Source of the DNA: Marsupella aquatica
Lineage: Eukaryota; Plantae; Marchantiophyta
Length of the DNA stretch: 64,000 nt
Assembly (NCBI GenBank): GCA_973895155.1
Contig: OZ316893.1
Location: forward strand, 16,460,645-16,524,644
Direction: 5' to 3'
Under the pieces are notes generated by a model. That model had not been told where the DNA came from, did no database searches, and was given only the letters and a program-made list of their open reading frames with translations. The translations under genes were made by a program, and so were the position numbers. The first letter of the stretch is position 1. Every line of letters starts with the position of its first letter. Below, piece by piece: positions 18,460 through 64,000 of this stretch.

Positions 18460-18466
18460 TATAAAA
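18460..18466 (+). promoter_or_regulatory. TATA box of LTR-A
   Basis: TATAAAAGG lies ~100 nt upstream of ATG 18568 and is conserved in the 5' LTR (~4429) and in the diverged minus copy (~35306-35312). Confidence 0.55.
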
Positions 18467-18567
18467 GGGGAGCCAACCCTTTGTAGTGCACCAGTCCATC
18501 AGTCCACGCGCCAGCTTCAACCCCAGCTCTCTCGTTCGCTCTAAGTTGCCACTACTATCTCCTCTGA

Positions 18568-21210: not shown

Positions 21211-22105
21211 CGGCGGAGTAGGAATAGATTAGGATTAGGACTAGCTTAGTCAGGCTCTTGGGACAGGCACCTGCCTTAGGTACAGCATCGCTGCCATGCT
21301 GTCCAGCCTGCATAGATTAGGATCTTCTAATAAGACACAGCCGTTTCCGGCCTGACTGTCAGCTTAGTTAGGACCTTAGTCAGTGAATCTTTGGCGAGAG
21401 GACACCCCGTCCCTCGGCCCTTAGTATTTAGTGCACCCCTTGGTAGAGGCAGGGGGGTTTTTAGTTGCAGAGTTGGGCGTCCGCGGTATGTGCGGGGAGT
21501 CCCGACCTCTGGGAATGAAAGAGTACCAAGGGGAGGGGGTAGGACTAAGCTCGCCGGGCGAGTGCGGAGCCGGGCTCCGTTGTAGTGTGCACCCTCGGCC
21601 TTGAACCTGTTTATTCCGGGGCTGTCGGGTCAACTAAGTGTACGCATATGTTCCCTTTGTAGTAAAAGCCTTTCCCATCATTTTCCTTCGTGTAAATCGA
21701 GATTGTATGCATGTGCGCGTGTATGTGTGTGGGTTTCTCGTATATGGGTGGCAGCGCCAGGCCGAACGCACTACCCGAGACGTGCATAGGGTGCAGCCTG
21801 CAGGTAAGTGGTTGCGAGCACAGGTTGAGGACCTGTATCATCGAATTTGGATCTAAGGCGGACAGCACGAAGGCTTAGAAGCCCTTAAGCCGGGGTCGAT
21901 CCTGCTATCGACTAAGGTACGTTCCGACGGCGGAACACAAACCATACCTAGGAGGTGTCCATATTTAGCAGTATGCGCACTTAGCGCTAGTTTATGAGAA
22001 TAAGGTGCATTACGTGCTTCCCTTCCTGCCCGAACCCTCAGATTTACGAGGGATGTGCCCGTCTAAGCTGAAGTCTGAGTTAAGGCCGCAGCCGATGACG
22101 TGACA

Positions 22106-25054: not shown

Positions 25055-25388
25055 AACTGACCATGTGCAGATCCCAATCTCTCTTGTGCTTACACTGAAA
25101 TTGGAGTCCTTGCATGCAAAGGGTACGACCCTTCCCACCCGAAAGGAGAAAGTTGCAATGGATCTTGAACTTGTCAATCATCACGAGAAATGGCCGGGAT
25201 GGGGCAAGGCCCTCGTGGGATTGGTCCAGTGAATGTGGTCTTGACAGGTGGGCTGCTTTAGGTCAGTCATGTTAGAAACCCCATTTCTGCCGTCACCACC
25301 AAGATCACAATCAAGCTATGTTTGTTGAAATCCTAGTTAATTACTCACTCCAAATTTCCCTGGCTTTAACAAGCTATGTTGGAGAGGC

Positions 25389-26111
25389 ATGCATACTGTT
25401 GCTCCAGACTCTTATGGCGCTGGGGACCTGCTTGAAGAGCTTAGGAGGCTTGATCCCAGTCTTATTTTGTGTATTGCTAAGATGATTTGTACACCCTGGG
25501 ACTTAAGTATATATAGCTTCCACCTCAATGAGGTAGAGCAGATGATTTATATCCGCTGGGACAGATATGTGAAGTACAGTAGGAATATCATCCTACTCCT
25601 ACTAAAGACCGGTGCTGTGAAGTGTTTCATTCTTCACTGTTGTCATGTGGTCGATGGGAGTCCATTATATGAACCCCACTTTTATGCCCAAAATAGAGCG
25701 GCAGCATTTGAGGAGATCCAGAGTGCCATTGAGGACCTCCCAAATCCGCTTGACACTGAATTCCTCATTGACATTGGCGGAAAATTATATTCCTATCAGA
25801 CTTGACAACTACCCCCTCGACCTGTATGTAGGTTCTTCCCCATGGTTTTTGTCTGGGGTCTATGGACCAGTTTAATTGCAAATGGGGAGGTGTGTATGTG
25901 TTGCATTAATGCCTACTGTGACATTCCATCACGCAGGTATTCAATAGCAGTAGTCGATGAGGATACCCATGAAGTGGAGTTTCATTGGTTATGGGCTTAT
26001 TCTCATAAGGTCACCCATATCCCACGATGGCCTAAGAAGCAGTTCAGGCTAAGGGATGTTGGGGAATCAGATGCAGATTGGGATAGTGAAAGTGAGGACG
26101 AGTTTTGGTAG
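25389..26111 (+). pseudogene. ~240-codon hypothetical protein with one internal stop
   Basis: ORFs 25389-25805 and 25842-26111 share a frame across one TGA; acidic C-terminus DADWDSESEDEFW. Confidence 0.45.
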
Positions 26112-26386
26112 AACTGTCCAAGAATGGACCTGAAGGATGTTTGTTGCATCCTACAATTTTGTAGATTTTGTAGTTTTGGATCAAAGATCAACATTTTGTA
26201 ATTTTTGTGACCAAAGTAAGGTAATCAATGAGACTCTGCTTGCTGGTCTACTTCAGATGTTAAATAACTTACTTTGGTGATTTCTAATCAAAATCATCAT
26301 AGTTTTTGAGTCGACGTTCATGCTCCTTTTGTCTTGTTTGCAGGCCTGTGGGAGGTGGATGTAGAGTGGTCAGAGTGTTTCACAAC

Positions 26387-29300: not shown

Positions 29301-30970
29301 GACTTTGTAGTCGTAAAGTCAGTAATTCTTTGCGACTGCTACGAGACAGAGCAGATGCTAGGGTTGAGCTTACACTTGGAATAGAGGTGTACATTAGGAT
29401 ATGTGCGGATTATTTGGACATTTTTCTTAACACTCAGCTCAGTTTGCGCGAGAGGATTGTTCTCTATGGGAAGGTGGGATTCTTTTTCAGGCTTTGGCGT
29501 CTATGGTGTTTTCATGGGAACCACTCAGTTGGGGGTAACACACACCCTATCACCTTCACCCATAGCTGTATCCCCATGCAAACATTCCTTGACATTCAAA
29601 TGTCGGTGCATTTTGTTGTTCTTTTGATAATCCAATTCAGGGACAAATTCCGAGATCTACCTGTACCCTTGCATTTGACTGGGTCAGATTCTTGTGAGCA
29701 GTTTTTTTCCAAAGTTGGGGGCATGAGGGGCAATGAGCAAAGCTATGACATATCAGAATTGGTGGAATGTGCTACTAATCTGAACCGGTTGGCTGCAATG
29801 GATTTGACTGAAGGAATTATGGGTGTGGGGAAGAGTCATAAAAAACACTCAACCATTTGGATGGGACTGCACCCAATAGAAACTGGGGTTGATGCAATAG
29901 CAGATCAAGCAAATTATACAGGAATCAAAACAAATGCAGAGGTTATCATTGCTTTGCAGGATGGGTTGGTATTGGCCCAGAGTATTGCAACTGAGTGTCA
30001 AATGAACCCTTCCACATCGGCCAGGGACAAGGTGTGGTGGACTTCACCTTGGACGACTGAGGCGAAAGGGGCTAAGTATGGTGGATGGTGTGATGTGAAT
30101 GTTGAGTCATTAGTTGATGTGGATGAAGGTTTGGATGATGAACCACCACCATTAGTACAGCCTGTTGTCCCAATGGAACAGACTCCTGAGGAGATTGCCA
30201 TGTTTTTAGATCCAGAGGTAGTGGATGCTAGCGCTGCAATTGAGGTTACCATGGATGCAATGCATTCTGACTTGGTGTATGGTGCCCCTAGACAGGAGTT
30301 TAAACCAACGGTATCTTACAAAGACAGGAGTATCTACAAAAGTACCCTGGTGAGCCAATTAGTGGGCAACCCACACCTTAGTAAGGACCGTCTCACTCGA
30401 GTGAAGCAGAGTATCTATTTCAACAATTTAGTGGATAAACCAAATGTGCGTGAAGGATCTCCATCCATGTTTATGACAGTTGGAAGTGACTGTGGAGTAT
30501 TTTTTGTTGATGACACTCCTCAGGGTAGAACCACTCGAAATACAGAGGCCATAGCTCGAGCAATGAAAGGGAAGGGGCATGCCAAGAAGTCAACCGATTC
30601 TAAAAGGCCTAGAGGTGAAGCTGTCACAATGACTTCAGTTAGAGGAGTGAAATATAAGTGGTGGATTGGACGAGTCCAAAGCATCCACAGGAAATATGGG
30701 AACAAGATCGGAAGATCAAGGGAAGCATTGGATTTGCTTGATAGGCCTGGTACTGAATCATGTTGTGAAGTGAGGTTCAATTGGTTTACTCCAATCGGGG
30801 CAACTGGGTGTAAGTTTAAGTATGATATGTGCGATCCTAGCAGCATTCCGTTGGAGGCTATCATTTCAACAGTGAGCTTTACTGTAGATCCATTGTACCC
30901 AAAAATCTTCATATTACATCCTGATGATGTAATAGCTCTTGACGATTTTGTAAAGAATAGAATAGTTTAA
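26387..30970 (+). pseudogene. P-element-superfamily-like DDE transposase with N-terminal C2H2-like fingers and a C-terminal BAH-like region; intron 28510-28621
   Basis: Motifs in P-transposase order: AEDET (D1), GHASDGD (D2), QDYIHNGKK (DxxH..K), DRQNWASAQRL, GSDSCEQFFS (E). The GT...AG intron joins ...TVR|WLPKHDTLIGFCG. Several stops and frameshifts upstream of ORF 28682-30970. Confidence 0.7.
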
Positions 30971-32166: not shown

Positions 32167-35100
32167 AGGGCCCAGGGAGCTGACCCAAAAGCTCTTGAAT
32201 AAACAGGTCCAAGGCCGAGGGTGTACACTACAACGGAGCCCGGCTCCGCACTCGCCCAGCAAGCTTAGTCCTACCCCCTCCCCTTGGTACTCTTTCACTC
32301 GCAGAGGTCGGGACTCCCCGCACATACCGCGGATGTCCAACTCCGAGACTAAAAACCCCCTACCTCTACCAAGGGGTGCACTAAATACTAAGGGCTGAGG
32401 ACCGGAGCGGCCTCACGCCCGTAGATTTGCTAACTAAGATCCTAACTAAGCTGGCTGTCAGACTGGAAAATGGCTTGTCTTATTAGAAGATCCTAATCTA
32501 CGCAAGCTGGACAGTATGGCAGCGCCGCTTTAACTAGGGCAGGCGCTTGTCCCTATAGCCCGATTTAGCTACTCCTAACTCTATTTTAATCCTAATCCAC
32601 CACTAATGTGTGGCGCACTTGCCAGAGCTGCCCGAGTGGGAGCGGCTATCCCGCTGCCTCCTGAGCCTGTCAGTATCCTGCTTGAGTAGCTGGACCTGGT
32701 CCAGTAGAGATTCGTTCTCATGCTTTGCCGCGTCCGTCTCTTCCGCGGCTCCTGACATGCCTCCTCTAGTTGCTGGACATCGCTCGTCAGCTTATCCACC
32801 AACTGGGCCTGCTTTGTGGCCTCTCCCTGAAGCCGTGCTACCTCTGTCTTCAAGGTGTCAATCTTGGCTGCATCCCGTTGAGATCGAGAGTCAGCTTCCT
32901 CCAAATCCTTTTGCCAACTGACGGCTTGTCCCTTCAAACCGTCAATCTTGGTCCAGAGTCGTGCAATCTTGGAGTCCTTTCCGAGCCCGGCCTGCTCTGC
33001 TAAGGCTGCCCGGGCCCTGGCCTTGGCAACCTGATCCTTCGTGGCTGTTACCTGAGGTCGCAGTTGCTAGAGTTCAGTCTCCAAGGTTGTCACTTTGTCC
33101 TTCAAGTAGGCAGACTCAACCCGGTATCACTCTATTCTCTGCGCTATCTCCGCCTGCGCATGTCCTGCCTTCACAGCCGCAACCAACTCCTGGTTGAAGA
33201 AGTAGGCTACCTTCCGTGCCATGTATTCTCCGGTATCCCATGAGATCTGTTGCCAAAAATCTCCCAACAACCCGTTCAAAAATGTGCCCGACGCAAAGAG
33301 TTCCGGATGGTCCAGACTATGTCCATCTGGATTTGGGCACGGGCAGACCCCAGCCCGCAAGGGAGTAGGAGTGGAAACATCCAGCCCTTGAGGTAAGTTG
33401 GTCAAAGGGACTGGTTCCTCCGTGCGGTCCTCCTGCACGGCCGTGGGGGGTGGCGGAATCTCCTCAGCCACCGTAGTGTCGAGTACGGGTCCGGCCTCAG
33501 CCGGCCCGGCTTTGATTGCGTTGACCCGGTTGATCGCTTCCAAGGTCACGATAACTGCGTCCATGGGTACGCTTGGTGGGGCGGTAGTGGCTGGTTGCGG
33601 CACCGGAGAAGTAGGTCCTGCGGCTGCCAGGCTTTGTGCTTTGGGCTGTGGTTGCCTCTCCTGAGCTAGGAATACCCACTTTGACGGAGTCAATTCCGTC
33701 TTGTTGCAATGGGGAAGGCTACGGCGGTCAAAATGGGCGTACCATTCAATGATAATCTCGATGTGGCTCGCAAAGTATGCCTTTCCGCCAATGTACAAGG
33801 TCTTCCTTCTCCGCTCCATCTCTTCGTGGAACTTTTTAACGAAGAAGGATGCCCACTTCCTAGGCCAAAAGTTCTCTACTTGTATGACCTGGGCAGCGGA
33901 TATTTCGCCCCGTGGTTCCATCATATGGAGGGCATACCGCTGGAACTCCAGGCGTTCAGCTACCTCCGGGATGAGGCACGTCCTCATCAAGAATCCGTTG
34001 TCCATAGCCCCCCTTGGTCGGGAAGCTAGCAGACAAGCTAGCAGACTGGTATTTAGCTCCCTGCCCCCAGGAGCCCGCGACTCTACCTGGTTTATCCCCT
34101 CGGGTAGGCCAAAAATCACCTTCAAACGTGCCTCATTGAGACACATCACTCTCCTGTGCGCTTGGGTTTGTTGGCGGGCCTCGTCAAAGTTATGGATGAA
34201 CTCTGTCATATCCTACCCGTAGTACCTGCTTCCATTCCAAGGGAGAGAGGCGAGGTGTTCAAACCCTTGGGTCTTCAGATAGCATGCATGCTTGGGGTGG
34301 AGGATGTTCTTGTGAACATTCTCCCCCATGTGATGCATGGTCAGCTTGGCCACTGCAATCATGGCCAAAGGCAACCCCGATATAGCTGCGGGTTCCTTTC
34401 TCTTTCTACCCCGAGACTGATTCCCGGGGTGATTAGAAGAGGGGGACATCTCTCCTTCCTCCCGGTCAGGCAGTGGTAGTGCTACTGCCGTGAGTATTGG
34501 TGTCGGGGCCGCCAGAGTCACCGTGTTATCCCCTTGGGCTTGCCGGAGTGGCGCTGGGTTGCTTGGCGCCTGTTGAGTCATTCCCCGCGGCCATCAATTC
34601 AGAGGAGGGTGAGCTTCCTCGTCTTTGGAGCTAATATTTACCGCATTCACCACAGATTGTACTCGGAGAGGTGGTGCGACTAGTGGTGGGGATCGGCTTG
34701 GCTAAGGCCGAGGCGGTGTTGGTGCGGACACGGATTGGTGGGCGCCAGTTGCAGCTGGCGGAGGTGTCATTAGATTCAAGTAGTTCCTGGGGAAGTCGAG
34801 TGATGTTAGGATGGGAGTCTCACTTGTTTGAGCAGGCCAAACTGACAATTGATGGAGGCTTGAACCCGGGCGGGGATATGGTCGTAATGGTGTGGCTGCA
34901 AGTCTATTGTGCCCGGGAGATGGTAAACCTTGTCCGGAAGCCAAAGAAGGGCTTCCCAAAATCCAACGTATTTCTCATCGACAAAGAAGTATTCGCTGAT
35001 TTTGTCAACTCGGCAAAGCTCACTCTGGAAAGGGAGGGCGAAGTCGTGATTATAATGATTTCGACCGGCTAAATGAATGGCTCTCTCGTAAGCTTGTTCG

Positions 35101-35668
35101 ATCTCGTATCGGCGTGGGTTGACTTCGGCTAAGGACTTGGCTAAGTGACTTCCCACGGATAGGAATTGCAACCAAAATTGAAGGGCCAAACTGGACAATA
35201 TCATGACAAACATCCAGGAGTGACGGTGGGCTACTAAGGAGGAACAAAGTGGCAAAGCTGGCGCGCGGAATGGAGTGTGAGTGTAATGCAAGAGAATGGC
35301 CCTCCTTTTATACTCTGAGGGCTCATCGTCCGACCGGCCCCTCCTCTCTTCCCATAGGCCGAGCTTTTCACGCTCCCACTATACTGGCCACTTGCGGGTC
35401 CGGTTCAAAGCGTGTCAGCGGCCGCCTTCAAGAATTTTGTTATACGGACCCGAAGTGTCCCCTTACACGCTCGTAACCCGAGAGTACGAATGGCGCTCTG
35501 CCGCCATCCCAAACGTAAATGTCCCTTACTAACTAATGATTCCCTAGTCATAAGTACTACCTACTTAGTGTCGTTATGCTAATAACTATGGCCTACGGTG
35601 CCCCTAACAAGCGTGCTACGCACGGCTAGGCCGAATCAATCATTAACCGCCGTGCTGGTGGCGTCACA
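32167..35668 (-). mobile_element. Diverged LTR-A family copy (A'), 3'-truncated, inserted in the LINE
   Basis: Minus strand starts TGTGACGCCACCAGCACGGCGGTTAATG at 35668 and is colinear with 18101-~21630. No PPT upstream. Confidence 0.85.
32603..35213 (-). pseudogene. LTR-A' accessory ORF (frameshifted)
   Basis: Pieces 34806-35291, 34213-34581, 33127-34209 and 32581-32937 match the LTR-A protein (LKTQGFEHLASLPWN, RLEFQRYALHMMEPRGEISAAQV). Confidence 0.85.
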
Positions 35669-43900: not shown

Positions 43901-45031
43901 GTGGCCTCCACTTTAGTATGCTGTACACCCAATCATCCTGGGTATATAGTGTGGCCCAAATACTCAATCTGGTCTTGGAAGAACTTACACTTGCTAAGAT
44001 GGAGCTTCAACCCATGTGCTCTCAATCTCGCCAACATAGTCTGCAAGTGCTGTCGATGTTCTTCCACAGTAGAAGAATAGACCAAAATATCATCAATATA
44101 ACATCTGACAAAATCCAAACGTGCAAGGATTTGATCCATGACTCTTTGGAACTCAGCTGGTGCATTCTTCAACCCAAATGGTAAGAACAACCACTGATAC
44201 AAACAATCTTTGCCATAAGAATCAATCCCCCAAAATGTTGTCTTGGACCTGTCAGCGGGTATAGCGACGGAGATAGGAAACAGGTAAACAGGAAATGTTT
44301 TTTCTATTTTTAATATGCTGTTACCAGGAAAAAATCACTGTTACCAGGAAAAATGACAATTTAAAAATGTCTCCTAAAACATATTATTTAAAAAAAAAAT
44401 TAACAATGCAACATTTTTGGCTAGCTTTGGGCGCTACTATTAGCAGCGCCGGGCGCTAGCAAATAAAACTGGTCAACCAAAAAAAAAAACTTTTTTTTTC
44501 TCAAAAAAATAAATAAATAAAAAAATTCCACCCATTTTCCTGTTACCAGTTTTTTTTCCTGTTACCAGTTTCTGTTATTAAATCATGTTTCCTGTTTGTT
44601 GTCTTTTGTAAACACCTCCTGTCAGCATGCCTAATTGGAAGCTGATGGTACCCTGCCCTCAGATCCAATGAACTGAAAACCTTTGAATGCCCCATTACAT
44701 CAAAGATCTCCTCAGGTGTGGGCATGGCATATCAATCAGATTTTGTCTGGCGATTAATAGGTCTGTAATCACCACACATGCGTCTATCTGTGTGATTGTC
44801 ATGCACATCTTTCTTGGCTGGCATTACTGTGACATACTCCTCATATGAAATCTCCACCACTCCAGCCTCCAACAAATCTTGAGTTTTGCTTTGAATCAGA
44901 GCTCTCTCCATGTCACTATAACGGTATGGTCTATGAAAGATTGGTGCATCACTAGCCAATTCAATCTGAATACCAGGGCCCTTCAATGTCTCCAAATCCT
45001 TCATGTTGAATGCAAAACAATTGTCAAACAC
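43901..45031 (-). pseudogene. Ty3/Gypsy RT fragment, interrupted by a MITE-like insertion
   Basis: RMCGDYRPIN, LDLRAGYHQLPIRHADR|SKT, LPFGLKNAPAEFQ, YIDDILVYS, YLGH. Confidence 0.88.
44257..44618. mobile_element. 362-bp non-autonomous relative of the 52231-61400 element
   Basis: TSD CTGTCAGC at 44249-44256 and 44619-44626 (extendable to 9 bp). Left end GGGTATAG; both ends align with the large element. Two degenerate TAGCGCC-N-GGCGCTA motifs at 44422 and 44444. Confidence 0.85.
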
Positions 45032-49827: not shown

Positions 49828-51577
49828 TGTAATACAGTACATTAGTTAGAAATGATAGAAAAATTATAAATTTTGAACTTTTTCTAAGTCAATGGTGCAA
49901 TATAGTTACTTTTTGTAGCAATTTAGATCAACTGAACACTTTACCTAATGTCATGCTACACTACACCGGAGACTACTTCCTGTTCTGGATATTGAACGAC
50001 AGCGGAAGTCTTTACCTTTCTATCGGCATTACACTCAAGACATGGATGTAATTCAAGAAGCTATGCAAGAGAATACCTACACAAGAGTTCAGCAACCAGA
50101 TCAGACAACACTATTCCAACAAGATTAGTTCTCCTACAACAATAGTTAAGATCAGCCGATCTCTACAATTTTAGTTAAATAGTTAAAGTAGTTAGAAAAG
50201 TCTCATACTTTTTCAGGAGATAGCCCTTATGTAGCAGACCCTCCCCTGAAAATATTAGCCAAAATCGACATGTTGTTTAGAAGTTATAGCATTTTTAGTT
50301 TTGCTTAAGTGTAAGTGCGCAAAGGCGCAACGGCGCTTCCGACACTTGGAAAATTTTCCAGAATAGTGTATTTTTTATCCGACAGCACTTTTCACCGATT
50401 TTATTAAGGCACTTAGACATCTCAAAAAAGTCTAAAATTTTGCAAGCATGTAGCATGTATATAAATCTTCCACCTAGGAAAGTTTCACCCTATTTTGACT
50501 TTTATGTTAGAAATTAAAATTCCGATAAATTCACTATTTATTAGTTTTACCACAAAAGTGCAAAAAACACTTTTACTCCAGTTTACACTAGGGATAACTT
50601 TTGGTTAGTTTTTCATTCCAACAACATTCTAGTGAACCTTGAGTACTCTTATAGCATATTTTCATACTTTTTACTTTAGTTTATGATCCTTAAGATGTGA
50701 CAGGGCATGTCCTTTCATTATCTTTTTTCCCCTTTAGTTTCTGCTAGCCTATATGTAGTAGAGTTTTTGCCACTTTTTGTGTGAAGAAATTTTATGAGCC
50801 CTCAGTTGCAAGATTGCAACTTTGTTACCTCCATTTGTAGCAAGCACTCCATTGCATATGAGTACTTAATACAAAGGAATTTTTCCCCCTTCAAGTCTAA
50901 ATGAATGAGAAGTTTGGACCCTTGAAGTAAAATTATTGTGATTGTTAAATCTTTTGAGTATGTGGAAATAGATTCCTTGTTGGTGATGTTTCACATATTC
51001 CTTAGTTCTTGATGCATAGTTTTTGACGTGACATTGCTTGTGCACGGGATGCAAAGATTGTTACTTACCAATTACTTATGGCTTCAAATTTGATTATGAT
51101 GGTGTCTCTTATTTGTGACACAAAGTACCGATTGGATACAGAAGTGATTGATTACTAGTCTCCACTCAGTACCTTGGAAGGAAAAGTTGAGACATGTTGA
51201 CGGCATTTTAGTAATCATCCTAGTACCGTAATCCTTTCCAAAAATGTTCTTGCGGATATACCACCTAAATCATATCAAATGAAGTTATGTTGAGGAGTCA
51301 CCTTGGTTGTTTCCTAACTCCCTCACCATACCTCAAGATTTTCATTGTGTTTTATTAATTGTTTCTATTTGTTAATTTTATTTTTAATGTCAAGCAGACA
51401 TTTAAAACTATGCCTTGCTGAGCAACCATAGTAAAAGGCTCAACTTTGTGTTTTTGTTACCTTATTCATTCATAAGTGCTAAATCATAGAAAATCATTCC
51501 TTAAATGTTCTTCCATGGGAACGAATACCAAGTTTTGGATCTTAAATGTTCATTTATGTCCCTAGTGTGATACTACA
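49828..51577 (+). mobile_element. Solo LTR, family B, short form (1750 bp)
   Basis: TGTAATA...TACTACA; TSD TTCTG at 49823-49827 and 51578-51582. Retains only the last ~56 codons of the LTR-B ORF. Confidence 0.92.
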
Positions 51578-51582
51578 TTCTG

Positions 51583-52230
51583 GTCATCAAGTTGACTGAG
51601 CACCACACCAATACAAAAACCAGACACATCCACATACACATGGAATTTTCTACTCCAATCAAGTGCTATCAAGATAGGAGCTTCAACCAACCTGTTCTTC
51701 AACTCCTGGAAACTTGCTAGCCTCTCAACTGAGGGTTCGACCTCAGCCCCGTTCTTAAGCATGCTGGTTAGGGGTAAAGCTACTTTAGCAAAGTCCTTAA
51801 TGAACCTTCTATAGTAGTTTAACATCCCAAGAATCCCCTCAACTCTGTTACTGAAGTTGGAAATTGGACAGCCATCCAAACAGCCACCTTTTCTTGATCC
51901 ACCTCGATGCCTTTCTTGGATACCTTGTGACCAAGTAGTATCCCTTCTTCCACACCAAAGAAGCACTTCCCTGGGTGAGCTTCAAACCAACTTTCCTACA
52001 TCTTTGGAAGGTCATCCTCAAATGTTCAACATGGTCCTTCCTCCTTCCAAAAACAGCAAAGTCATCTATGAATACTTCCAAGAACTTTCTCAAGTAGTCA
52101 TGAAAGATATTCATCATCAACCTTTGGAACATACCAGGGGCATTACAAAGACCAAAAGGCATCCTCCGAAAGGCATAAATCCCCCACTCAGTAGTAAAGG
52201 CTGTCTTCAACTGGTCCTCCTTCCTTATCC
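51583..52230 (-). pseudogene. RT/RNase H segment of element D
   Basis: KTAFTTEWG, MPFGLCNAP, FIDD, YYRRFIKDFA, VDVSG. Confidence 0.9.
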
Positions 52231-52269
52231 GGGTATAACCACCATGCTAGCAAACAGTAAATAGATATT

Positions 52270-52402
52270 CTCATACGAGCCAATTTTTTCTCGTACGAGT
52301 AAACAAGTTCCTCGTATGAGCATATCTATTTACTCGTACGAGTTTCTGTTTTCTTGTATGAGTTTCTGTTTTCTTGTATGAGTATTTTTTTTTCTTGTAT
52401 GC
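52270..52402. repeat. Subterminal array of the 10-bp palindrome CTCGTACGAG (~7 copies, 20-22-bp period, CpG-decayed)
   Basis: ctcatacgag, ctcgtacgag, ctcgtatgag, ctcgtacgag, cttgtatgag x2, cttgtatg. Confidence 0.8.
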
Positions 52403-52602
52403 ATTTTAGTTTCTTCTCTTCAGGGTATAGCGTCCATATATGCAATAATTGTGCGGACAATATTATGGTGGGTCCCACCATTGTACAACATCAGAGGAAA
52501 TTTCTTGACGATTTCACGCAAGGACTCCAATATATTGCCACAAAATATGAAGTCAAAACAAAGTCATACAATACTAGCGCCCTAGAGCAGTGTATAACTC
52601 AC

Positions 52603-54590
52603 CAGTCTTATGAAGTTCCCCCATTGTCTCCATCAGACAACCCACCAAGACAGCCACCCTTGCAGCATCCAAAGTTTGCCTGAGTGACAATTGCCAGACC
52701 TCCACCAGTCATCGATTTCCCTCGAGATTCGATATGCTTTCAAGAAAGTTGGTGCGTTCCGAAGACGATCCCACATCTCCTTGTGCTCTCCGTGCTTTCC
52801 ATCTTTCACACCTTCTTGGGAATGATGATGAAAAGATTGGAAAAATGAAAGGCATCTGATCTTTCTCGCTCTGGGTCGGGTACACCGTCAAAGAACACGT
52901 TTTGAACAATATTCCAACCAGCCTAAGCATTGTCCGCCATGAATCCCCAAATTGTAACATCCTGTAAACCATTTTCATCGGCAACCTCTAGCATCAAACG
53001 CCAAGCTCTCTCCAGAGATTTTGCATCTTCGGCCTTTAGCTCACAAGTGAATATGGTGCAAAGTGCCCGGTAATGATGATCATATACATGGGCACTGAAA
53101 GTAAGCCAATCTGCCGTGCTTCGATGCATCACGTCAAAACTTACCCATGAACCCTCTAACGACCCACCAGGTTTCATTCTTTGGAGCAGGTCCAGACCAC
53201 TCCCATCACCTTTTACGGTCATTTTAAAGATATGAGCACTCTCGTCCCGGCAGCCTTGACCAGGGAGCAAGAACCTATGAAGAAAAGGCAATCGGATACA
53301 CTTTTGCATCCTCACAAGAAATTCCAGTTCCCCTTTCCCCTTCTGATCTTGACGGACACTCCTTAACACGGATGCAAACTTCTGAGGAGATGCCATGACC
53401 ATCAGGGACTCCCAAATTTCCTTCTCTTCTTCGAGAGAGATTTCTTCAACAGAGGCCTCGCAAAATGTATTCGTCAGTGTCTCAATCGCAGAGTTTTTTA
53501 TCCCTGCTGGGGATGCCATGGGGTTTGCAATGAATCCCTTCTCCAGATGAGACCTTGCAACCTTTTTTGCCTCCCTCAAAAAGACCCGTCGACTGGGATG
53601 ATTGTGAAATCCCATATGAATAGCTAGTCGCGACATGTGGGCCAAAGACTTAACGTCAACTTTTGCACATGGATACATGTAGAACATTAGAGCAGGGCAG
53701 GCCTCAACACACATCGGAGGTTCGGAGCAATGGTGACAAACAACTCTACCTTCGGAGATCAACTCCCCAACTCGGAATGGGCCCAAAAGTTCTGGGGTTC
53801 TTGCCCACATCTCATTATTTTGAAACTTGTTGTCTTTCCACCACGGACAAGCATTATTTTGACACTGCAGCGATCCCGTACACTGGACTTTCCTGAAATC
53901 CCACATTTTCTTCGGAAGAACATTTGAAGACGTTTTCACAATCCGAGTCCAATAATAACAATCCTTACCACGATCCATATCTTTCAAACGTTCACCTTTT
54001 GCGTTCACACAGTCTACCGGGGGTAACTCAAAAACCACATTCCCATTGTAAGATGTGGGAAGACTAGGCACTACGTGATGAACAAAATCACTCCCCCTTA
54101 TAAATCGAGACAATTCACTATGACCTTTGGATTTCAAGATTGTATCCATTGCACTTTGCCGGTACGCAGTCAAAGGCACAATCTTTTCTCGATCCGCATT
54201 AGACTCCTTTTTAACCTCGGATGGGTAAACTGGAATCTTCTCTCTGAGAGTAGTTGTCGCTTGCTTATCATCTCCAGAACTTTCCGAGAGTTCGATGACA
54301 TCGAGTTCAGCCGCTATGGGAGGACGAGTACAGGAGGCCCCAGAATCTCTCAAAACAAAAACCTCATATTCTTTGTGAGCCTCCAGAGTCCAATATCTTT
54401 GATCATAGAAAATTGGAGTCTCCCCCAAACAAACCGATACTAACGATATTGCTAAAATAGACTCCTTGGCGACATCAAATCTCACTCCCAAATATTCCTC
54501 TAAAACACGCTTTGATTCAGATGATTCGAGGACGGGAATTGTGATTACATCCCGAGTGTCCTTTCTCGTGACAACGATATTTTGAGCCAT
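52603..54590 (-). pseudogene. MULE-type transposase with WRKY/GCM-like Zn module; 3' part decayed
   Basis: 555-aa ORF with CTGSLQC...C..C...C...C...HMGFHNH, then FDVMHR (D1) and GFMADNA (D2). Past the stop it reads AGWN...SDAFH (CxxH position) and a W-rich WLSWW segment ending at a GTGAG donor at 52602. The catalytic E and SWIM domain were not seen. Confidence 0.72.
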
Positions 54591-54765
54591 GGCTTCAAAC
54601 GAGGGATATGCCTTTGCCCCGCGCGAAATGAAATATGTTTATTATGAGATTCAAGTACGAGAAGTAAACGTTTCATTCTCACTATAGAGTCGTTATAGAT
54701 TTGGACGCACTCCATCAATGACGTTTTGTCGTCTTACCAACGACAGGATTTGGGTTCATAGTTAC

Positions 54766-54909
54766 TAGCGCCTGGCGCTACATCTAAGTGTAAAACACTC
54801 TTGGGTGAGGACTACGAATGCCAATAATAATAGCGCCTAGCGCTACCTCTGGGTGCAAACATTCTTGGGTGAGGAGTACGAAGACAATTAATAATAGCGC
54901 CTGGCGCTA
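54766..54909. repeat. ~64-bp tandem repeat upstream of the transposase, each unit starting with TAGCGCC-N-(G/A)GCGCTA
   Basis: Motifs at 54766, 54831 and 54895 with similar spacers (cttgggtgagga.tacgaa). Confidence 0.85.
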
Positions 54910-55312
54910 CCTATTTCAATGGACTTGAAAACATTCAATGGAAGGAAAAGTACGATAACGCGATACAGTACGAGTCATTAAGTTGACACGCTTGAAGATC
55001 TCCACTGGATCTTCTCGAATCCGATCCGCCCGGGTCCAAATGTGTCAGAAAGGAAGCATCTCCGAAAGTTCTCTCAGAGAGTCCTCTTCGAAGTGGGTAC
55101 CCGGGACCAAGTGCCAATTCTCCTTATATCTCATTGTTCTCATCCGATGTCCTCATTGTTGAGCCATTCTTCACTGAGTCGTAGTTGTGGCTCATCTTTT
55201 GAGCGCGTGGTTCTTGTTCTTGCTTTTGGGCCCAGTGGTTCTATTTCACTTTCGTGCGGGTTCTTGTTCTCGTTGTCGTCCTCGTTTTTCATTCTCATCC
55301 TAGTTTGCGCTC

Positions 55313-55786
55313 TTGTCCTCGTTCACATTCTTGTTTGCGCTTCTTGTTCTCGTCCTTGTCCTCACTTTCAATAGCACCTCACGAGGGAAGGCAAAGGAGG
55401 AGGCACTTGTCCCAAGCGACACCGACCGGGAGACCCCCACATCAAATAGCTTACCGCCTCGGCCGAATGCCGAGAGGATGACGGTTCCAATCTTGAAGAA
55501 GGGCAAACTCATCTCGAAGACGAAGAATGCCCCACCTGCGGGCCGCAATGAAGGATCCAGTCGGCCAAATCCGAGCGGCCCGACTTCTGTTCCCGCTAGG
55601 GATATCTCCCGCCGTCCCAGAGCTGACACTATCTGCACGGGTGTCTCTGAGCCTTCTTCATCCACTGAGAGTGATCGTTCTTTGAGCGGGGACTCATCAC
55701 CGAGCAGGCAAGGATTTGCGTGGTATGGATCGAGCGACTCAAATGACGACTCTGATGCGTACAAGCCAAGTTGGTGGGAAGACTAA
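55313..55786 (+). CDS. Possible low-complexity S/P/K-rich ORF inside the MULE-like element
   Basis: 157-aa ORF with a non-ATG start (KGKAKE..., ends DDSDAYKPSWWED). An equally long antisense ORF exists, so strand and reality are uncertain. Confidence 0.3.
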   Translation: MSSFTFLFALLVLVLVLTFNSTSRGKAKEEALVPSDTDRETPTSNSLPPRPNAERMTVPILKKGKLISKTKNAPPAGRNEGSSRPNPSGPTSVPARDISRRPRADTICTGVSEPSSSTESDRSLSGDSSPSRQGFAWYGSSDSNDDSDAYKPSWWED

Positions 55787-57085
55787 TTTCCCGTTGTCAG
55801 AGTGTATCGTTCGAGTGCTGGACAGACTTGGAGGATCCATCGAGGTTGATAGGATCTGTTTCCACTCATTTTTTCCGATAGAAAACGTATACTGTTCCTT
55901 CATCATATGCCGGATTTCTAGTGTACTGTAACATTTTGTATGTGAACGGCATAGCCGTTCATTTTTACCTCGATGTCAATGCTTTTGAATTCTAAATACC
56001 AAGCTTTAATTTCCGGTTCTACTCCTGTGCTTGCTTTGTATTTCTGAATGCGAGCCTGCTCAATTTCTTTGAAATTGTCGTAAACACTCGTTTGCTGTGA
56101 ATGTTTTTAGTAGCATTCGGCGCTATTATGAGAAACAAAGCGTCCTTAACAGTGTCGTGACATGTCTTATCTTTAAATTGTTTTGGATAGTGTTGGGCGC
56201 TATTAATTAAAGGAATCAAAAGTCAGACCCGTTAGGAGTTATTTTTTACTTTTATTCCAACAAATTCTGTTCAATTGATGTTTATTTTAATAGCGCCAGG
56301 CGCTATTGTAATTCATTGGAATATTCGTTGAATGAATGGGTGCATGTGGTCATGTTTGTTGTCATTGGACTCCAATTTCATCATTTATTTGAATACTAGC
56401 GCCGAGCGCTACTAAACTCGGCTTGTCGACACCCGCACAAAATTGGAAAATTTATAGACAGTAGTATTGATATTACTGCCCGTAGATACATGAAGACGGT
56501 TTTCCAGATACATTTGAAGGTATGTTTTATAATAGCGCCTGACGCTATCCACAACTACCGACACTGATGTGGTTCCAACGGTCACTTTCCAACAGTAATA
56601 TTACAGTAGATTGAGGTTCACGGAACCCTTTTTGATTTTTTCTGGGATGAAAGTCCAATTGGAGAATGCCATCTGTACTTGGGACCATTGTAATCGAATG
56701 GCTGGGTCCATTGTATCGGTGTATTAATACAAGGTGGAGATCGCTCATTTGGGATAATTTAGTCCGTCTAAGCGCTCAGACCTCGGACTGTACGAGTTTG
56801 TCAAGTGCGTATGTGCATCCTTTATTGGTCCCATACATTTTGAGACGTGATCGTGACAAGAACTGCACGGCGCGTACGACAGTGCCGGGTGGTCGCGTCG
56901 CTCTCCACGGCAACTTTTGGCTGGGTGATATGGGAATGGGGGAGGCTGATGGTGGTCATTCTGAGTCCTCTCAGTCTTTGTTTGCTGGTTCAGTATACAC
57001 CCGTCACGTCACTCGATCGACCGCATCCCTGTCAACTTCCGAAGCTAAATCTGCACAGCCCTTCCCGAGGTCGAGGAGAGGGAGA

Positions 57086-60000
57086 ATGGACCCTAAGGAG
57101 GTCTCCATGGGTGAAGTCAGTGACATAGGCTTATCGATGGATGAGGTAATATCAAAGCACGCATTGTCGTTCGGGAAGGATTTTCAAGGATTCGATAAGG
57201 AGCCACCTCGAATTCCTCTTTGTAGATTGCTCCCCATGGAGGTTGTTCGAACCTTACAGAAAGAAAGTGCATCGATCGAGAAGTTGAAAGAATCATTCTG
57301 GGTCACCGGGTACAACTCGCGCATTGGGATGCCTTTCTACGTTTAGCCTGCGAATGCCAATGGGGTTCCTCAAATATGCACCAGCGAGATCCGGGACTCT
57401 TGGGATCCAATCTGGGTCGCAGAGAACAACAAGTTTGAGGAAGAGTGTGCTGCGGACCCAGCGTTCCATATTCTAAAAGATAAAATGTTTTGTGTGTTTG
57501 ACGGAAATCATCGATTGTACTCCTGGTCAATCGTCACCAGGGAGAATCCGGACAACTTGAAGTATCATCCTCGTGTGATTTGCGTCATTTTCAATGGTGA
57601 CAGAGGTTCGCTAGTTGAGCTCGAGGCGGCAATGCACACCGTGAACTAGTAAGTTCTATTCATTAACTGTTGTTACCCTTGTCATTCATTTTGGACCAAA
57701 CAACGAAAGTGTTCATTCCCCAGTTTTTGCTAGCGCCCGGCGCTACTAATTCCTTTTCATTGCATCCAGGCTTGGACAAGCAGTCGTCGAGCCTTCCTGG
57801 ATTCTTGACGCGGACAGAATTTTCCAAATTTTGTCGCGTGATCTTGATCACTATAAGCCACTCATCGACAACGCAAACATGGCAAAGTTTGAGGCGATCC
57901 GAAAGAAGACGAGAAAGGGGTCTTGGTTTACACATAAAATGCCACAGGATGCTCTCATCTACATTCTGTGTGTGGACAAAATCAAGTCTTACTCAAATCA
58001 ATTTAAGTCTGATATGGCTTTAGCCAAAGCTCAAGGGGCTCCTTGGTCAAAAGAGGAGAACACAAAGAGGCATGAGGCAATGATGAAGGAGGCGACCAAA
58101 GATTGGTCGATCAAAGTGACGAAGATCACCCCTTTACTTCATCCGGATTTTGGAGATTATTTGGGAACCTGTGCTGAGATGTATCCCGTAACTGATAAGA
58201 ACAAACAGGAGAAGGCCAGACACAGTTGTATGCACAATGGATCGAGCCAGGTTGTTTACTACTGTTTCATACCTGGATCCAAAATTGAGGTGCACCCTTC
58301 TAGTAGCCCACTGCACTCCCGAGATTCAGAAACAGTTTTTCCATCCTGCAAGTGTCAACGACGAGCTTGTGAAGCAGTGGTGCCATACATGGCATACTTG
58401 GAATTCTGTGGAGGGAATTGCAACTGGAATGCTTCACACTTCCTTCAAACAGATTTCTAACCGAATGTCGGCTGACTGTCTCACAAAATCTGGGTGTGAG
58501 TCAATGGAGGCCATGCTTAAGATCATTCTTGATGAATTCAAAAACTTTGGGGATCTTGTAAAGGCAAAATTCTTCAACAACTTGTGGCCTTCCAAATATG
58601 CGGACAAGGAAGATTACACAAAGCGGAACCGGAAGAGAGCCAAACGATATCTATACCGGTTTTACATGTGGATGGAGCTTAGATCTCCAGACACACTGTG
58701 GGCATACCCGGCTGCATTTCAGAAATGGGTGTCTATCGAAGAGGGAGACGCTCTTGCCAACCTGTATTCGATGTACCCAGCAGAGGGAAAGTTTCCACCA
58801 CGTTCATTGTCGGAGTGGGAGAGACTTCACTGTCCGTGGTACCTCGACACAGACAAATGGGATTTACCGTTCGACGAAGCTGAGAAGGATGCCTTCATGA
58901 AGTTGCAGAAGTCCCAGATCCCCGCCAATTACGTGTCTGCAATGAAGCAAGGTCTCCAGTCTGATGTTGACGAATCTGCATCTGAGTTACAGAAGAATTG
59001 TGAGTCTCTTGTCATGCACGTTGACCGAAGCCGTAACCCAAGAGCAAAGGCGAAGAATGAGTCAGCTGCACCAAGTGACTCCACAAGGTCCTTCAAGAAA
59101 AGTGAGTAGTCTAAGCGCTTTTTGGTTACTTGTTGGCGCTGCTTATGCAGGAGTTTCATTTGGAAATTCCTTTGATTAATAGCGCCTGGCGCTAGTCTGA
59201 AAGGTTGGACTCATGCAAGTTTTTGTGCCTAACAGGAGGTCGAAAGTCCGACACGGAGGTCCCGGCTGCCGAAGGGAAGAATGATGCAACTCCTCAGGCA
59301 TCGGAGGCAAACACTGGAGCTCAAGAAACCCCGGATCAAGGGACCCCGGATGGTGCTGGCAAATCCATTGTCCCTGTTGACGCAACTAGCACGAAGAAAA
59401 AGAAAAAGAGAGGCACCGGTGAAGACAGAGGAGCATCATCTACTCGAGACGTTATTTCATGTGGACTCTAGAGAGATGTCGGAAATTTTAAGCGAAGGTG
59501 TTCTAGACACTGTTTTGTGGAGTCCAATTTAAATGAATTTTACGATTTGGTATTTAACAAGGGGATGAAGCCCATGTGGGTTACTAAAGTTGAGGCCTGG
59601 GGAAAGGAATTGGTAAAGTCAGGAGACAGAGAGAAGGGAGTAATGCATGGCGGAAAAGAGAGGGGCTTTGGTGTGGATGCTGGTTTCATCTACATTCCCA
59701 CTGGATTAAAACCAACACTTCTTGATCGGAAGGTTCCCAAGTGGAACCTTCAGGATTACACTATTCCCAGCTCTTTCTTTCGAGCCATGGAACCGTTCCT
59801 GGCAGACGATGGCCTACTTGCAATTTTACACAGAGGAGACTATGATCAGGTATCTGAAGTGATTGCGGCTTGCCAGGATTCAAAGTGTTTCCAGTGTATT
59901 TCAACCCACCATGTGGTCATGACTACACCAATGTATAGGCCCCGATCTGATACTCAGGTAACAATTCCTCTTGCACATACTAGCGCCCGACGCTACTATC

Positions 60001-60689
60001 AGCATTCGCTATATCTACAATTCACTTATCTTTCGTAAGGATGAAGGGTTGACTAGCGCCAAGCGCTAATATATGTGTCTGTTTTCTTATACTGCCTTCA
60101 TTGGGAAACTGTGTTGCAGATATTCACACTTACTCTTAATATATTTTGCCGCATTTTGACAAAGGGAAGGGTCCCGAAAGACCCCAAGTTCCGGCCACTA
60201 TCGAATGCAGAAGACCCTTCCGTCACTAACATTATTGGGTTTTCATTGCCGTGACATGACCCGACTCCTGAGCTCCAATTTGTAGGAAATTCACGCTTGC
60301 CTGTGGGTTTCATGCAAACTATTTTGGAATTGGTGACTCTTCCTGGAGATATCGTTATGGACTGGACAGTAGGTTCCGGTAGTACGTTTGTGGCTGGAAA
60401 TTATTCTGGTCGCTTTGTTGTTGGGCTGGAAAATTGGCCAGAGTTTGTTGATACTTCCGGTAAGGTCTTCCTCGATCTTTTACAGAACAAAGAAGTGGTT
60501 GCACCAACTCCTCCTAAGAAGATTCCTGGAAGTAAGAAGCAGGACAGGCTCCGTGTTGTTCTAAATTTTGATTCGGAAGACGAGGATGAGGGTGGCAATG
60601 CTTCTCAGCAATCTAAAGATGATGAGGTGTCGAAGAATGTGGTGGACCTTGGATCTGGAGATGAGGACAGTGAAGAGTCAGAAGAGTAA
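57086..60689 (+). pseudogene. ParB/Srx-like domain plus helical region plus beta-class N4C/N6A DNA-methyltransferase-like domain; introns 57649-57769, 59102-59235, 59958-60119
   Basis: IPLCRL..VR.L...L..SF...GY...FYV and VFDGNHRLYSW (57500-57514). Then VDAGFIYIPTG (motif IV position), FLADDGLLAIL, RLPVGFMQTILE (X), PGDIVMDWTVGSGST (I), GRFVVGLE (II). The three GT-AG introns preserve frame; several stops and one frameshift are present. Confidence 0.75.
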
Positions 60690-61400
60690 TTTTCTTTAGC
60701 TTTCTTTCTCTCATTGTATACTTTTTTCCAAAGAACTCCTATACTCCCTTTTGTCTAGAAAATTTGCCCGATTTCCCGACTTCGACTAAAGAACTCCAGT
60801 TCAAATTCTCAGGTCAGAGTGGAATCTTCGGAGGCGTTTTCAACTTCGAAGGAACGTCTCTAGGAACGTTGTACAGACCCCAGAGAAGCCATTTGTTCTC
60901 CCCTCTTATGCTGAAAAGGCGGCACAACGGGCAGATTCAGTCAGGACGCTTACTTGGGAGAGTAAGGGTCTTAGACTCAGGAGAGGCTCAGATAGAAAGT
61001 TTGTGCAGAATCACTTCGTAGATGATATTGCAAAATCCAAGTATGTGGACGACGAAGCAGAGTCCACTGATAGATCAGAAAGTAGCGGTTCTGAATCGGT
61101 CTCAGAGTCGAGTGGTGGTTGTGGAGAACGACGACACTAAATAAGAACGCAATTACGTGTCGTATTAGAGTAGCGCCCGACGCTATTACTGTAGCCGGTA
61201 GTTCAAAGAGGTTTTTATTCGGATGTTTTCCTTATAGCGCCCGGCGCTAGTATAAATGTACTCAATGGCCGCTTCAGGTCCAATATATGTGACAATATTT
61301 TCTTATCCTTCAGTGTCTTTTTTTGGGTGCACATTTGCTGGTATGAGTTTTGTTGTTTGTTGTTTGTTGTTTGCTATTTGATGTCACGGAGAGATCCCCC

Positions 61401-62231
61401 CCTTATCCAAATCTGGTTGTAACCTAAGTACCCATCTAGGAAGCTATACACTTCCCAACCAGCTACTAAGTCAAGTACCATATCAGTAAAGGGAATGGGA
61501 TAGTGGTCCCTCTTAGTGGCCTCATTGAGTTTCCTAAAGTCTTGGCAAACTCGGATCTTAGGCTTACCATCCAAGCCTGGTTTCTTTGGTACAATGACAA
61601 TTGGGGAAACCCACTCACTATTCAACACAGGATAGATGAAACCTGGTTCCAACAATTTGTCTATCTCTTCTTTCACCATCAAGGAGTACTTGGGATTCAT
61701 TTTATATTGCCTTTGTCTCACAGGTGAAGCTCCTAGCATCAAGTCAATTCTATGCTCACCGAGTTCAGGGTTTACACCAGTAAGATCCAAGTGACTCCAA
61801 GCAAACACATCCACATATTCTCCTGGTAAATCTTGGATAGTTTTCTCTTCACCTGATCCCAAGGCATTTCCCAAGTTGAAGGTCTTGTCTTGCTGGACAG
61901 AGATGGTTCTGTACTGCTCAGCTTGAATCACCTCCATCTTGTTCCTCATTGTGGAGTCAAAAGTGTCTTCAAGTTGTGCCAATCTCATGCCTCCATAGAC
62001 TGGTGCATTTTCAGCACTTAACTCCTCCTCCTTGCTTGAATGCTGGTCTTCATGAGTCTCATCCTCCTCTAAGTTTTCAGCCCCCAATTGGTCCTCCAGC
62101 TCCTTTATCTTGAGCTTCAACAAGGCCAAGTGTTTAGCCTTCACCCTCTGGTCATGAGTCCCCTTCTTAATCTCAACTTGGGGAGCACCCTTGCTGGTCT
62201 GATCAGCCTCCTGAGCCACTGTGACAGTGTC
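61401..62231 (-). pseudogene. RT N-terminal segment of element D
   Basis: DVFAWS, SEWVSPIVIVPKK, CQDFRKLN, LDGYLGYNQIWIR. Confidence 0.9.
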
Positions 62232-64000
62232 TGTAATAAAGTAGATTGGTTAGAAATGATAGAAAATTTATAAATTTTGAACTTTTTCTAACTCAAAAGC
62301 GCAGTATAGTTACCTTTTGTAGCAATTTAGATCAACTGAACACTTTACCTAATGCTATCCTTCATTGGAGGCTATTGTATTGGACAAGGATCGATAATAT
62401 AAATCCTTGCTCTTTACATGCTACCAAAAAAGAAGATTGGACATCATTGGAGAAGCAATGCAGGCTAGAAGATTCAAGAACCGGACTCCAAAACACTTCT
62501 TCAACAAGAATGAGCTCTGTATATAATTATCACAATCAGCCAATCTCTGCTATTTTAGTTAAATAGTTCTCACGGTCAGAAAAGTCTCATACTTTTTCAG
62601 GAGGTAGTAGTTGCATAGTAGAATCATCCCTTAAAGTTTCATCTCAAACCGACATGTGGTTTGAAAGTTAAAATTATTTTAGTTTAGCTATTTTTTGCAT
62701 AGCCACGACTTCGCCGACGCTTTGAGAAGCGTCCCTTGTATTTTTGGACGCTTTGAAAAGCGTCCACCCAAGACCACGACGCTTTGAGAAGCGTCCACAT
62801 GAGAAGCGACGCTTTCGGAAGTGTCCACCAAGTTTCGACGCTTTCTGAAGCATCCGCCACTCCAAAGGCGACATCGACACTGACGCTGACTGAAGCGTCG
62901 CACCCGAAGCCCAGAAGCCAGATGCTGCGACCAAAACCTCGAAATTCAGCCGACGCTTTCTGAAGCGTCCACAAAAGTCCTTTGTAGTTTTGGACGCTTT
63001 CTGAAGCGTCCACTATGTTCTCGACACTTAGAAATATTTTCATTTTTCGCACTTTTATAACACCACGCTGCTTTTATCGATTTATTTGAGGCACTTAGAG
63101 ATCTCAGAAAAGTCTGAAACTTTGTCAGCATAGAGATTATATGTAGTAGAGTACCCTTAGTTTAGAAGTTAAAATTAGATTAAGATCACTGTTTATTAAT
63201 TTTACTACAAACACCGACGCTTTGCAAAGCGTTCGCTCAAACCTCGACGCTTTGAGAAGCGTCCCCTACATTTTTGACACTTTCAGCAGTGTCCATTCAC
63301 TTTTCAAGGATGACCGTCATTAAGTTTATTCAAGACCCTTTAGATATGAAAGGGCATGTCCTTTTAGTCTCTCAGTCTCCTTGCGTTCCAGCTAGCCTAT
63401 ATGAAGTAGAATTTGTGTCATTTTCAAGTGTGAAGAAATAAAGTAGTGCCTGTGACATGTGCTGCAACATTGGAATCACCTTTGCAAAGCTTTCGTGTGT
63501 TTTCGTGTGGTATGGAGCTTGCAAATGCAAAGGAATTCTTCTCCCTTCCTTGGTCTGAATGATTGAGAGTTTAGATCATTGAAGTAAAATTATTTGTATG
63601 GAGTTGAATCTCAGAAGTATGAGGGAATAGATTCCTTAAGTGGTGACAACCCATCTTCTTGAGTTCTTGATGCATAGTTTTTGGCATGACATTGCTTGTG
63701 CACGGATGCAAAGATTGTTACTCACCAATTACCTGTGACTTCAATTTGATCATGATGGTGTTTATTATTCGTGACTCAGAGTACCGACTGGATATCGAAG
63801 TGATTGATTACTAGTTTCTTCTAAGTACCTTTGGAAGGAAAAGTTGAGACGTGTTGACGGCATTTTAGTAATCATCCTAGTATAGTAATCCCTTCCAGAA
63901 ATGTTCTTACGGATTTACCACCCAAATCACATCAAATAAAGTATTGATGAGAAGTTACCTTGGTGTTTTCCAGACTCCCTCATCATACCTCAAGATTTCA
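62232..64000 (+). mobile_element. LTR family B, diverged short form (B3), running off the window end
   Basis: Starts TGTAATAAAG. The first ~120 bp match 49828-49950 and the rest is colinear with B1/B2. Predicted TSD GTGTC. Confidence 0.85.
62716..63294. repeat. Array of ~11 18-bp palindromes GACGCTT-N4-AAGCGTC in LTR-B3
   Basis: gacgctttgagaagcgtc, gacgctttgaaaagcgtc, gacgctttctgaagcgtc and variants, irregularly spaced. Confidence 0.85.

Follow-up and report, generated by a model that had tools for sequence, protein, structure and literature searches.

Transposon proteins that recognise the element encoding them and protect it are known in few cases (VANC, TnpA and Mutator transposases). According to the accessible text of the sources, VANC has its binding motifs in introns, between genes and in terminal non-coding DNA (PMC5735166), and its motif is a 9-bp non-palindrome that occurs in same-orientation arrays and differs between close families (PMC5735166, PMC10398659). 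Among algal transposons, PAG3 of the red-algal Plavaka (EnSpm) is ParB-like and lies beside inverted-repeat arrays, and self-binding is proposed for it in the available part of the preprint (10.1101/2025.02.11.637652). The accessory protein of Ectocarpus Sola1-1_Ec32, of ~1,100 amino acids (aa), combines a ParB-like region with an N4C/N6A methyltransferase, as far as the accessible text of PMC12477816 describes it; the string 'palindrom' has 0 occurrences in that paper's main text. Here, we describe a 9,170-bp Mutator-like element in a 64,000-nucleotide stretch of the liverwort Marsupella aquatica (contig OZ316893.1, positions 16,460,645 to 16,524,644; hereafter the window, with coordinates counted from its first letter). 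The element carries a 15-bp palindrome, TAGCGCC-N-GGCGCTA (TAGCGCCNGGCGCTA), in its non-coding DNA and encodes an accessory protein with a predicted ParB-like domain.

The palindrome is a real, conserved cis-element of a Mutator-like family. With up to two mismatches allowed, TAGCGCCNGGCGCTA matched 13 times in the window, 12 of these within 54766-61249 (6 perfect, 6 with one mismatch) and the remaining one at 44444; shuffled windows gave a mean of 0.06 and a maximum of 1 match, and 0 of 100 reached 13. Copies with three mismatches lie at 56111 and 56188 in the large element and at 44422 in a 362-bp relative, and an isolated three-mismatch match at 14107 is without the outer TAGCG/CGCTA. The element holds 14 dyads of 15 bp in total, 12 with at most one mismatch and 2 with three, and these are the 14 positions that an earlier note, made from the sequence alone, had listed. 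A relaxed scan (TAGCG-N4/5-CGCTA, at most one mismatch within the outer 10 bases), for which the ~54 kb of neighbouring repeats in the window served as background, returned 16 sites, of which the large element holds 14 and the 362-bp relative 2, with 0 elsewhere. The features on which the following analysis draws are these:

52231..61400, unstranded: whole Mutator-like element, 9,170 bp, without terminal inverted repeats, recognised by its empty-site joint and termini
52575..52581, plus strand: half-site TAGCGCC, 21 nt inside the transposase intron
52603..54590, minus strand: transposase exon 1, with a predicted ubiquitin-like N-terminus, a GCM-like zinc region and the DDE core, interrupted by stops and one frameshift
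54766..54909, unstranded: tandem repeat with a 64-65-bp unit, lying upstream of the transposase and holding the motif three times (54766, 54831, 54895)
56111..56547, unstranded: five motif copies (56111, 56188, 56291, 56397, 56533), upstream of the accessory gene
56930..57648, plus strand: accessory exon 1, predicted ParB-like N-terminal domain with a DGNHR box; start codon approximate
57649..57769, plus strand: intron 1 (GT..AG), motif at 57731; homolog alignments break off at 57646 and continue from 57780
57770..59101, plus strand: exon 2, helical region, part of which corresponds to the homolog segment that aligns with the DNA-binding domain of ParB
59102..59235, plus strand: intron 2 (GT..AG), motif at 59180; placed by splice signals and frame only
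59236..59957, plus strand: exon 3, linker followed by the initial half of an amino-methyltransferase in permuted order, with YIPT as motif IV
59958..60119, plus strand: intron 3 (GT..AG), two motifs (59981, 60054); its donor coincides with the end of homolog P0167
60120..60689, plus strand: exon 4, SAM-binding motif I and Pfam N6_N4_Mtase (PF01555)
61171..61249, unstranded: two motif copies (61171, 61235), close to the right end of the element
44257..44618, unstranded: 362-bp non-autonomous relative with termini like those of the element, a target duplication of 8 or 9 bp, CTGTTACCAG subterminal repeats and motifs at 44422 and 44444

All 14 copies fall in the non-coding DNA, which makes up 2,988 of the 9,170 bp (33%), and none in an exon, as the earlier note had it; this avoidance has p ~1e-3 when the copies are counted as 6 independent clusters. 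The three introns of the accessory gene, taken alone (417 of the gene's 3,760 bp), again give p ~1e-3 for motif placement, with introns 1, 2 and 3 holding one, one and two copies. A full copy is present in six of the seven non-coding compartments, and the seventh, formed by the left end and the cut-off transposase intron, has only the half-site at 52575, which the note had also recorded. The claim that every intron carries the motif is therefore exact just for the three accessory-gene introns. The half-site is probably the remnant of a full copy, because one contig (joint 56415->52581) has a full motif 13 letters before 52581, and because L001, a metagenome contig with a related transposase, has a full copy 32 nt inside the matching transposase intron. 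Two other accounts of the placement were rejected: the TAG stop does not force the motif out of exons, as two of the three reading frames are open, and the motif is not a mobile mini-unit or introner, as the introns are alike in nothing beyond it.

Conservation extends beyond this copy of the element. In L001, whose best tblastx segment is 56% identical to the window transposase, the matching transposase intron contains three copies of TAGCGCC-GGCGCTA, with a 0-nt spacer, and 0 of 200 shuffles have any; the flanks of these copies are unrelated to those in the window element. The gene-less 362-bp relative keeps its two copies and has little internal sequence in common with the large element apart from the motif, the best blastn match between them being 34 nt around the intron-1 copy at 57731 (E 3e-6). 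Since the subterminal repeats of the two elements differ (CTGTTACCAG in the relative, CTCGTACGAG in the large element), the shared motif is not the end-repeat. Among related copies of 56090-56570, only one of the 38 variable places listed falls in the 75 motif bases, where 5.9 were expected (p = 0.013, in a lenient test), and at that place the family has an intact CpG and the window copy is decayed. Scans for related loci gave one locus from metagenome contigs, none in viral contigs with either alignment and none in prokaryote genomes; a motif scan of viral contigs returned 85 stretches, with a single site in each of the 80 listed.

The composition of the dyad fits base-specific reading by a symmetric, dimeric protein better than it fits a hairpin. 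Across 28 half-sites, whose counts are descriptive as the copies are not independent, TAG is kept in 28, the C and the G of CG in 27 each and each base of the inner CC in 23, with A at -2 in 21 of 28 (background 0.29). CpG bases are intact in 54 of 56 cases versus 46 of 56 for the inner CC bases (Fisher p = 0.029), in line with the earlier observation that most copies keep their CpGs. The alternative, which we consider improbable, is either a host transcription-factor site or a hairpin signal in RNA or single strands, multiplied by local duplication and template switching. It would suit the three copies in the 64-65-bp tandem unit and the 5-8-bp stem that most copies can fold on either strand, and a loop would accommodate the changed spacer length in L001, where one copy centres a perfect inverted repeat with arms of ~31 bp. 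However, it is the letters rather than the pairing that are conserved: the -1/+1 flanks pair in 3 of 14 copies, the A at -2 is symmetric, no compensatory change was seen, and G-to-A variants in two sense-strand intron copies disrupt pairs. The introns, moreover, share nothing outside the motif, and the ~54 kb of other repeats have 0 copies.

Two further features of L001 were noted. The copy at the centre of the inverted repeat is the middle one (L001:1163-1232), and all three copies lengthen the palindrome to ATTGC...GCAAT; these extended palindromes possibly arose by template-switch growth.

The accessory gene lies on the plus strand in four exons, with stops and one frameshift, the latter near 58210-58274 in exon 2. 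Its protein is collinear with 1,191-1,207-aa proteins of a liverwort, Riccia sorocarpa, and further homologs occur in ferns, namely two Adiantum; by themselves, these relationships make a seed-free land plant the probable host. A word-index search for long homologs gave none, and a HMMER search gave 228 matches, of which four among those listed (P0064, P0129, P0136 and P0156) are unrelated repeat proteins and were left out of the alignments. For the liverwort homolog, structure prediction suggests a fold like that of bacterial ParB/Noc. In the AlphaFold model of the Riccia homolog P0040, pLDDT is mostly >85 over approximately residues 140-560, and the ten best Foldseek rows are all of the ParB/Noc family. 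By VIA, the N-terminal domain of P0040 matches 7bm8 with Z 8.8 (rmsd 2.4, 99 residues), and the N-terminal plus DNA-binding domain gives Z 8.6-8.7 (rmsd 6.5-6.7, 193-194 residues), the best unrelated row reaching Z 4.4. G-N-H-R is conserved in 59-68 of 70 rows and a later Asn in 66 of 70, residues that we take to correspond to the CTP pocket of ParB. Pfam and PDB sequence searches found no ParB domain in the protein, and a homodimer prediction for the Riccia homolog (residues 133-610), run without an alignment, gave no verdict (score 0.00).

For the ParB plus helical region of the Riccia protein, the nearest Atlas clusters are DUF3723 (0.96-0.97; 179-199 of 256 features), and a Pfam scan of 23 homologs gave no PF12520 match. 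No ParA ATPase partner was found by Pfam among 12 open reading frame (ORF) pieces of the element, and no VANC-family Pfam match among these pieces or the 23 homologs. A tblastn search of phages returned weak matches to the methyltransferase only (E 0.004-0.5), the ParB part having none, and thus does not demonstrate a phage origin.

The C-terminal methyltransferase domain is recognisable in exon 4 (PF01555, E 9.7e-8, 32.7 bits vs a cut-off of 26.7). It is permuted, with the catalytic motif before the SAM-binding motif, and SAM-binding motif I is intact. According to the accessible text of PMC8885841, beta-class N4C/N6A methyltransferases have the catalytic motif (D/N/S)PP(Y/F/W). This pattern is absent from all six family sequences that cover motif IV, which reads YIPT in the window, YLPT in P0167, DLPT in P0165 and P0166, DMPS in P0030 and DVPF in the fern P0086. 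As motif IV is eroded in 6 of 6 sequences, catalysis is doubtful across the family and not merely in this dead copy, and the domain probably works non-catalytically. The earlier suggestion that the GCGC cores are the methylated sequence is, by the same token, weak at best. In its fuller form, the motif would be the substrate of the element's own N4C/N6A methyltransferase, and methylated GCGC or CCNGG would block host 5mC; the permuted amino-methyltransferase with its intact SAM-binding motif and the preserved CpGs of the motif speak for it, and the same idea is put forward for Sola1-1_Ec32 in the accessible part of PMC12477816. Given the departures at motif IV, we hold this to be very improbable. 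Amino-methyltransferases, furthermore, are known to read sites far shorter than 15 bp.

Eleven homologs of the transposase were found. A homolog placed in the Atlas has MULE (Mutator-like element) as its top clusters (0.94; PF10551 in 61%), and none of 11 transposase family members has a Pfam match to PF10551. A D..D..DxxH pattern is visible, but the window lacks the exon that would supply the third acidic residue: the gene is broken, with the downstream exon or exons missing past the intron that starts at 52602, and in L001 the exons continue. The segment 52231-52602 showed no similarity to the downstream exon of L001, so that the window copy looks like an internal-deletion derivative; related contigs also cover this internal-deletion form of the transposase end. 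The fold search was dominated by residues 1-85 (54340-54590, minus strand), predicted to adopt a ubiquitin-like fold (best Z 6.7). To our knowledge, a ubiquitin-like N-terminus is not a described feature of Mutator transposases.

Binding of the sites by the transposase through its GCM-like zinc domain, with activation of its own transcription, seems quite unlikely to us. The weak GCM-domain structural match (1odh, E 0.077) and the motif copies in the L001 transposase intron agree with it, as does the AtMu1 transposase, which activates and hypomethylates its own copies; the same source, in its accessible part, places AtMu1 transposase peaks at terminal repeats, not introns (10.64898/2026.08.24.746577). 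In addition, the end-located subterminal repeats, which are candidate transposase sites, are separate from the 15-mer and not the same in the element as in its 362-bp relative, whereas the 15-mer is common to both.

The element sits in the reverse transcriptase (RT) gene of a Ty3-type retrotransposon, and its ends have these features:

52223..52230, right copy 61401-61408, plus strand: 8-bp target-site duplication CCTTATCC, on both flanks
52270..52403, unstranded: subterminal repeats CTCGTACGAG and variants, with four close and three looser copies and a variant at 61338, distinct from the 15-mer

Contigs from three of four public runs contain the empty site, joining 52222->61401 with 8 shared letters, and related copies are numerous, with 1,068-3,226 contigs per run mapping to the stretch at identities of 80-100%. 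MULE target-site duplications measure 8-11 bp according to the accessible text of PMC6446971, and those found here are of 8 bp (element) and 8 or 9 bp (362-bp relative). The two ends of the element have only GGG in common, and no end-to-end pair is present among the 25 longest inverted repeats listed; the absence of terminal inverted repeats fits the non-TIR subgroup of MULEs. The left terminus of the 362-bp element, GGGTATAGCG, recurs identically in the large element at 52423-52432, ~190 bp inward from the latter's left end.

An element built in this way leaves room for a role of the same ParB-like binder in transposition, its clamps condensing the element or joining the dissimilar ends in place of terminal inverted repeats. 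ParB bridges and condenses DNA, and the mobile 362-bp derivative has its two motif copies at the centre. Against this stand the dispersal of the copies over the interior and introns and the left end, which has a half-site only and yet a clean target duplication, although the loss may postdate insertion; we regard a transposition role as unlikely.

We propose instead that the palindromes are parS-like loading sites of the element's own ParB-like protein and bring a VANC-like benefit, a composite model, built on predicted structure, that we judge to be almost evenly poised between right and wrong. Its first part, that the motif is bound by the ParB-like accessory protein, is probable; the coupling of this binder to an anti-silencing effect is put forward tentatively. 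The accessory protein would bind the palindrome as a dimer, as ParB does on parS; the dimer would load at each site and, as a clamp gated by CTP, may spread from there along the DNA. With a site every 0.8-2.2 kb, wherever coding permits, such a clamp would be able to coat the whole element. The likeliest pay-off is VANC-like, since VANC sites avoid exons likewise: copies of the element, and gene-less derivatives that keep the sites, would be less silenced. The note's idea of dyad sites for an element-encoded protein gains plausibility from the predicted ParB fold, the retention of the motif in the 362-bp relative and L001, and the protein-site-like logo.

Several observations weigh against this proposal. 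The structural evidence comes from a homolog that is 34% identical to the window protein in the ParB part, its Foldseek E-values are weak (0.5-1.2), and the model residues up to ~515 align with the ParB DNA-binding domain at a high rmsd of 6.5-7.2. The spacer in L001 has 1 nt less, a difference that one fixed dimer would not readily tolerate, and L001 stops short of the accessory gene, so motif-protein co-variation cannot be read from it; the motif also lies inside the transposase gene's own intron, which fits transposase binding too. In the conservation test, 40 of 42 rows were listed and many contigs end inside motifs, where differences go unlisted; by a hand estimate, p would be ~0.1 if both unlisted rows lay in motifs. 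Finally, the CpG observed/expected ratio in the element is 0.65-0.86 by distance from the motif and 0.26 and 0.53 in the host flanks, but other elements of the window reach 0.8-0.97, so these ratios do not demonstrate protection; the trend of CpG and CHG ratios with distance from the motif is slight and non-specific.

Beyond the two main genes, the element contains one further listed feature:

54936..55786, plus strand: putative third low-complexity ORF region, motif-free, start uncertain, with a stop-free frame at 55304-55783

Related contigs differ at 55373 and 55379 within it. The segment 60790-61140 is likewise motif-free and has a 116-codon stop-free frame with an acidic, serine-rich tail and no credible Pfam match; it is possibly a fourth small ORF. 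In the surrounding region, RT fragments of Ty3, Ty1 and LINE type form a nest. Also present are three copies of a GC-rich repeat (4304-7135, 18335-21751 and, inverted, 32178-35668), whose long stop-free frames, of 626 and 728 aa in two of the copies, have no Pfam match, and three related LTR-like copies (10271-11919, 49964-51579 and 62232-63998). Stop-free frames of up to 765 and 534 aa, also with no Pfam match, occur at 25341-30967 and 8061-10432, which are repeat or gene relics.

Our literature search found no description of this land-plant family or motif, nor a paper joining DUF3723 and ParB; Repbase, subscription papers and Iyer et al. 2011 were outside its scope. As the accessible parts of the algal papers indicate, ParB-like self-binding has already been proposed for algal transposons, and their supplements may detail the repeats further. 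What is new here is the land-plant Mutator case, the intron-by-intron placement of sites, their persistence in a minimal derivative and a link, at the level of features, to DUF3723 of Starships. The algal papers floated the idea without a defined site; the present family offers an exact 15-mer, a spacer variant that occurs naturally and a minimal carrier of 362 bp, which make it directly testable. If the idea is true, eukaryotic chromatin would host a sliding clamp of the ParB type, a different route to self-recognition in which a few short sites suffice for one protein to cover a target of 9 kb.

Bacterial ParB, Noc and KorB (7bm8, 7bnk, 6sdk, 7ol9, 8qa9) resemble the accessory protein in the predicted N-terminal fold, the G-N-H-R box and the helical domain behind it. 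The sites, like parS, NBS and OB, are palindromes of similar length on the same element, parS being 16 bp long. Unlike bacterial ParB, the accessory protein is eukaryotic and its gene contains introns; it has long helical insertions and a C-terminal methyltransferase-like domain, and no ParA partner was seen among the ORF pieces. DUF3723 (PF12520), likewise a gene of mobile elements and connected to the present protein by language-model features only, is an auxiliary gene of fungal Starships to which the accessible texts assign no function (10.1101/2021.12.13.472469, 10.1101/2025.02.28.640899). If this link holds, a function would be suggested for a conserved Starship gene. More speculatively, and with considerable doubt, eukaryotic transposons may repeatedly have taken up the ParB/parS clamp and site for self-recognition, with this Mutator family and the Starship DUF3723 genes as branches.

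Among transposons, and as far as the accessible sources describe them, PAG3 shares with our element an accessory gene with a ParB-like N-terminus and inverted repeats on the element. It differs in its 2OG-oxygenase partner domain and in tandem repeat arrays that adjoin the gene, whereas the window element is Mutator-like, belongs to a land plant, has an eroded amino-methyltransferase as partner and has sites dispersed into each accessory-gene intron. Sola1-1_Ec32 likewise encodes a ParB-methyltransferase fusion on the strand opposite the transposase, but belongs to another transposase superfamily and host, and the catalytic motif is lost in the window family. VANDAL elements with VANC, again by the accessible text, are Mutator-like, often without terminal inverted repeats, and have a short motif that is confined to non-coding regions including introns and multiplied through tandem repeats. 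The palindrome described here, by contrast, is a dyad of 15 bp that persists between relatives with ~56% transposase identity, and a ParB-like fold is predicted for the accessory protein; the window element thus resembles VANDAL/VANC in layout and is not a member of that group.

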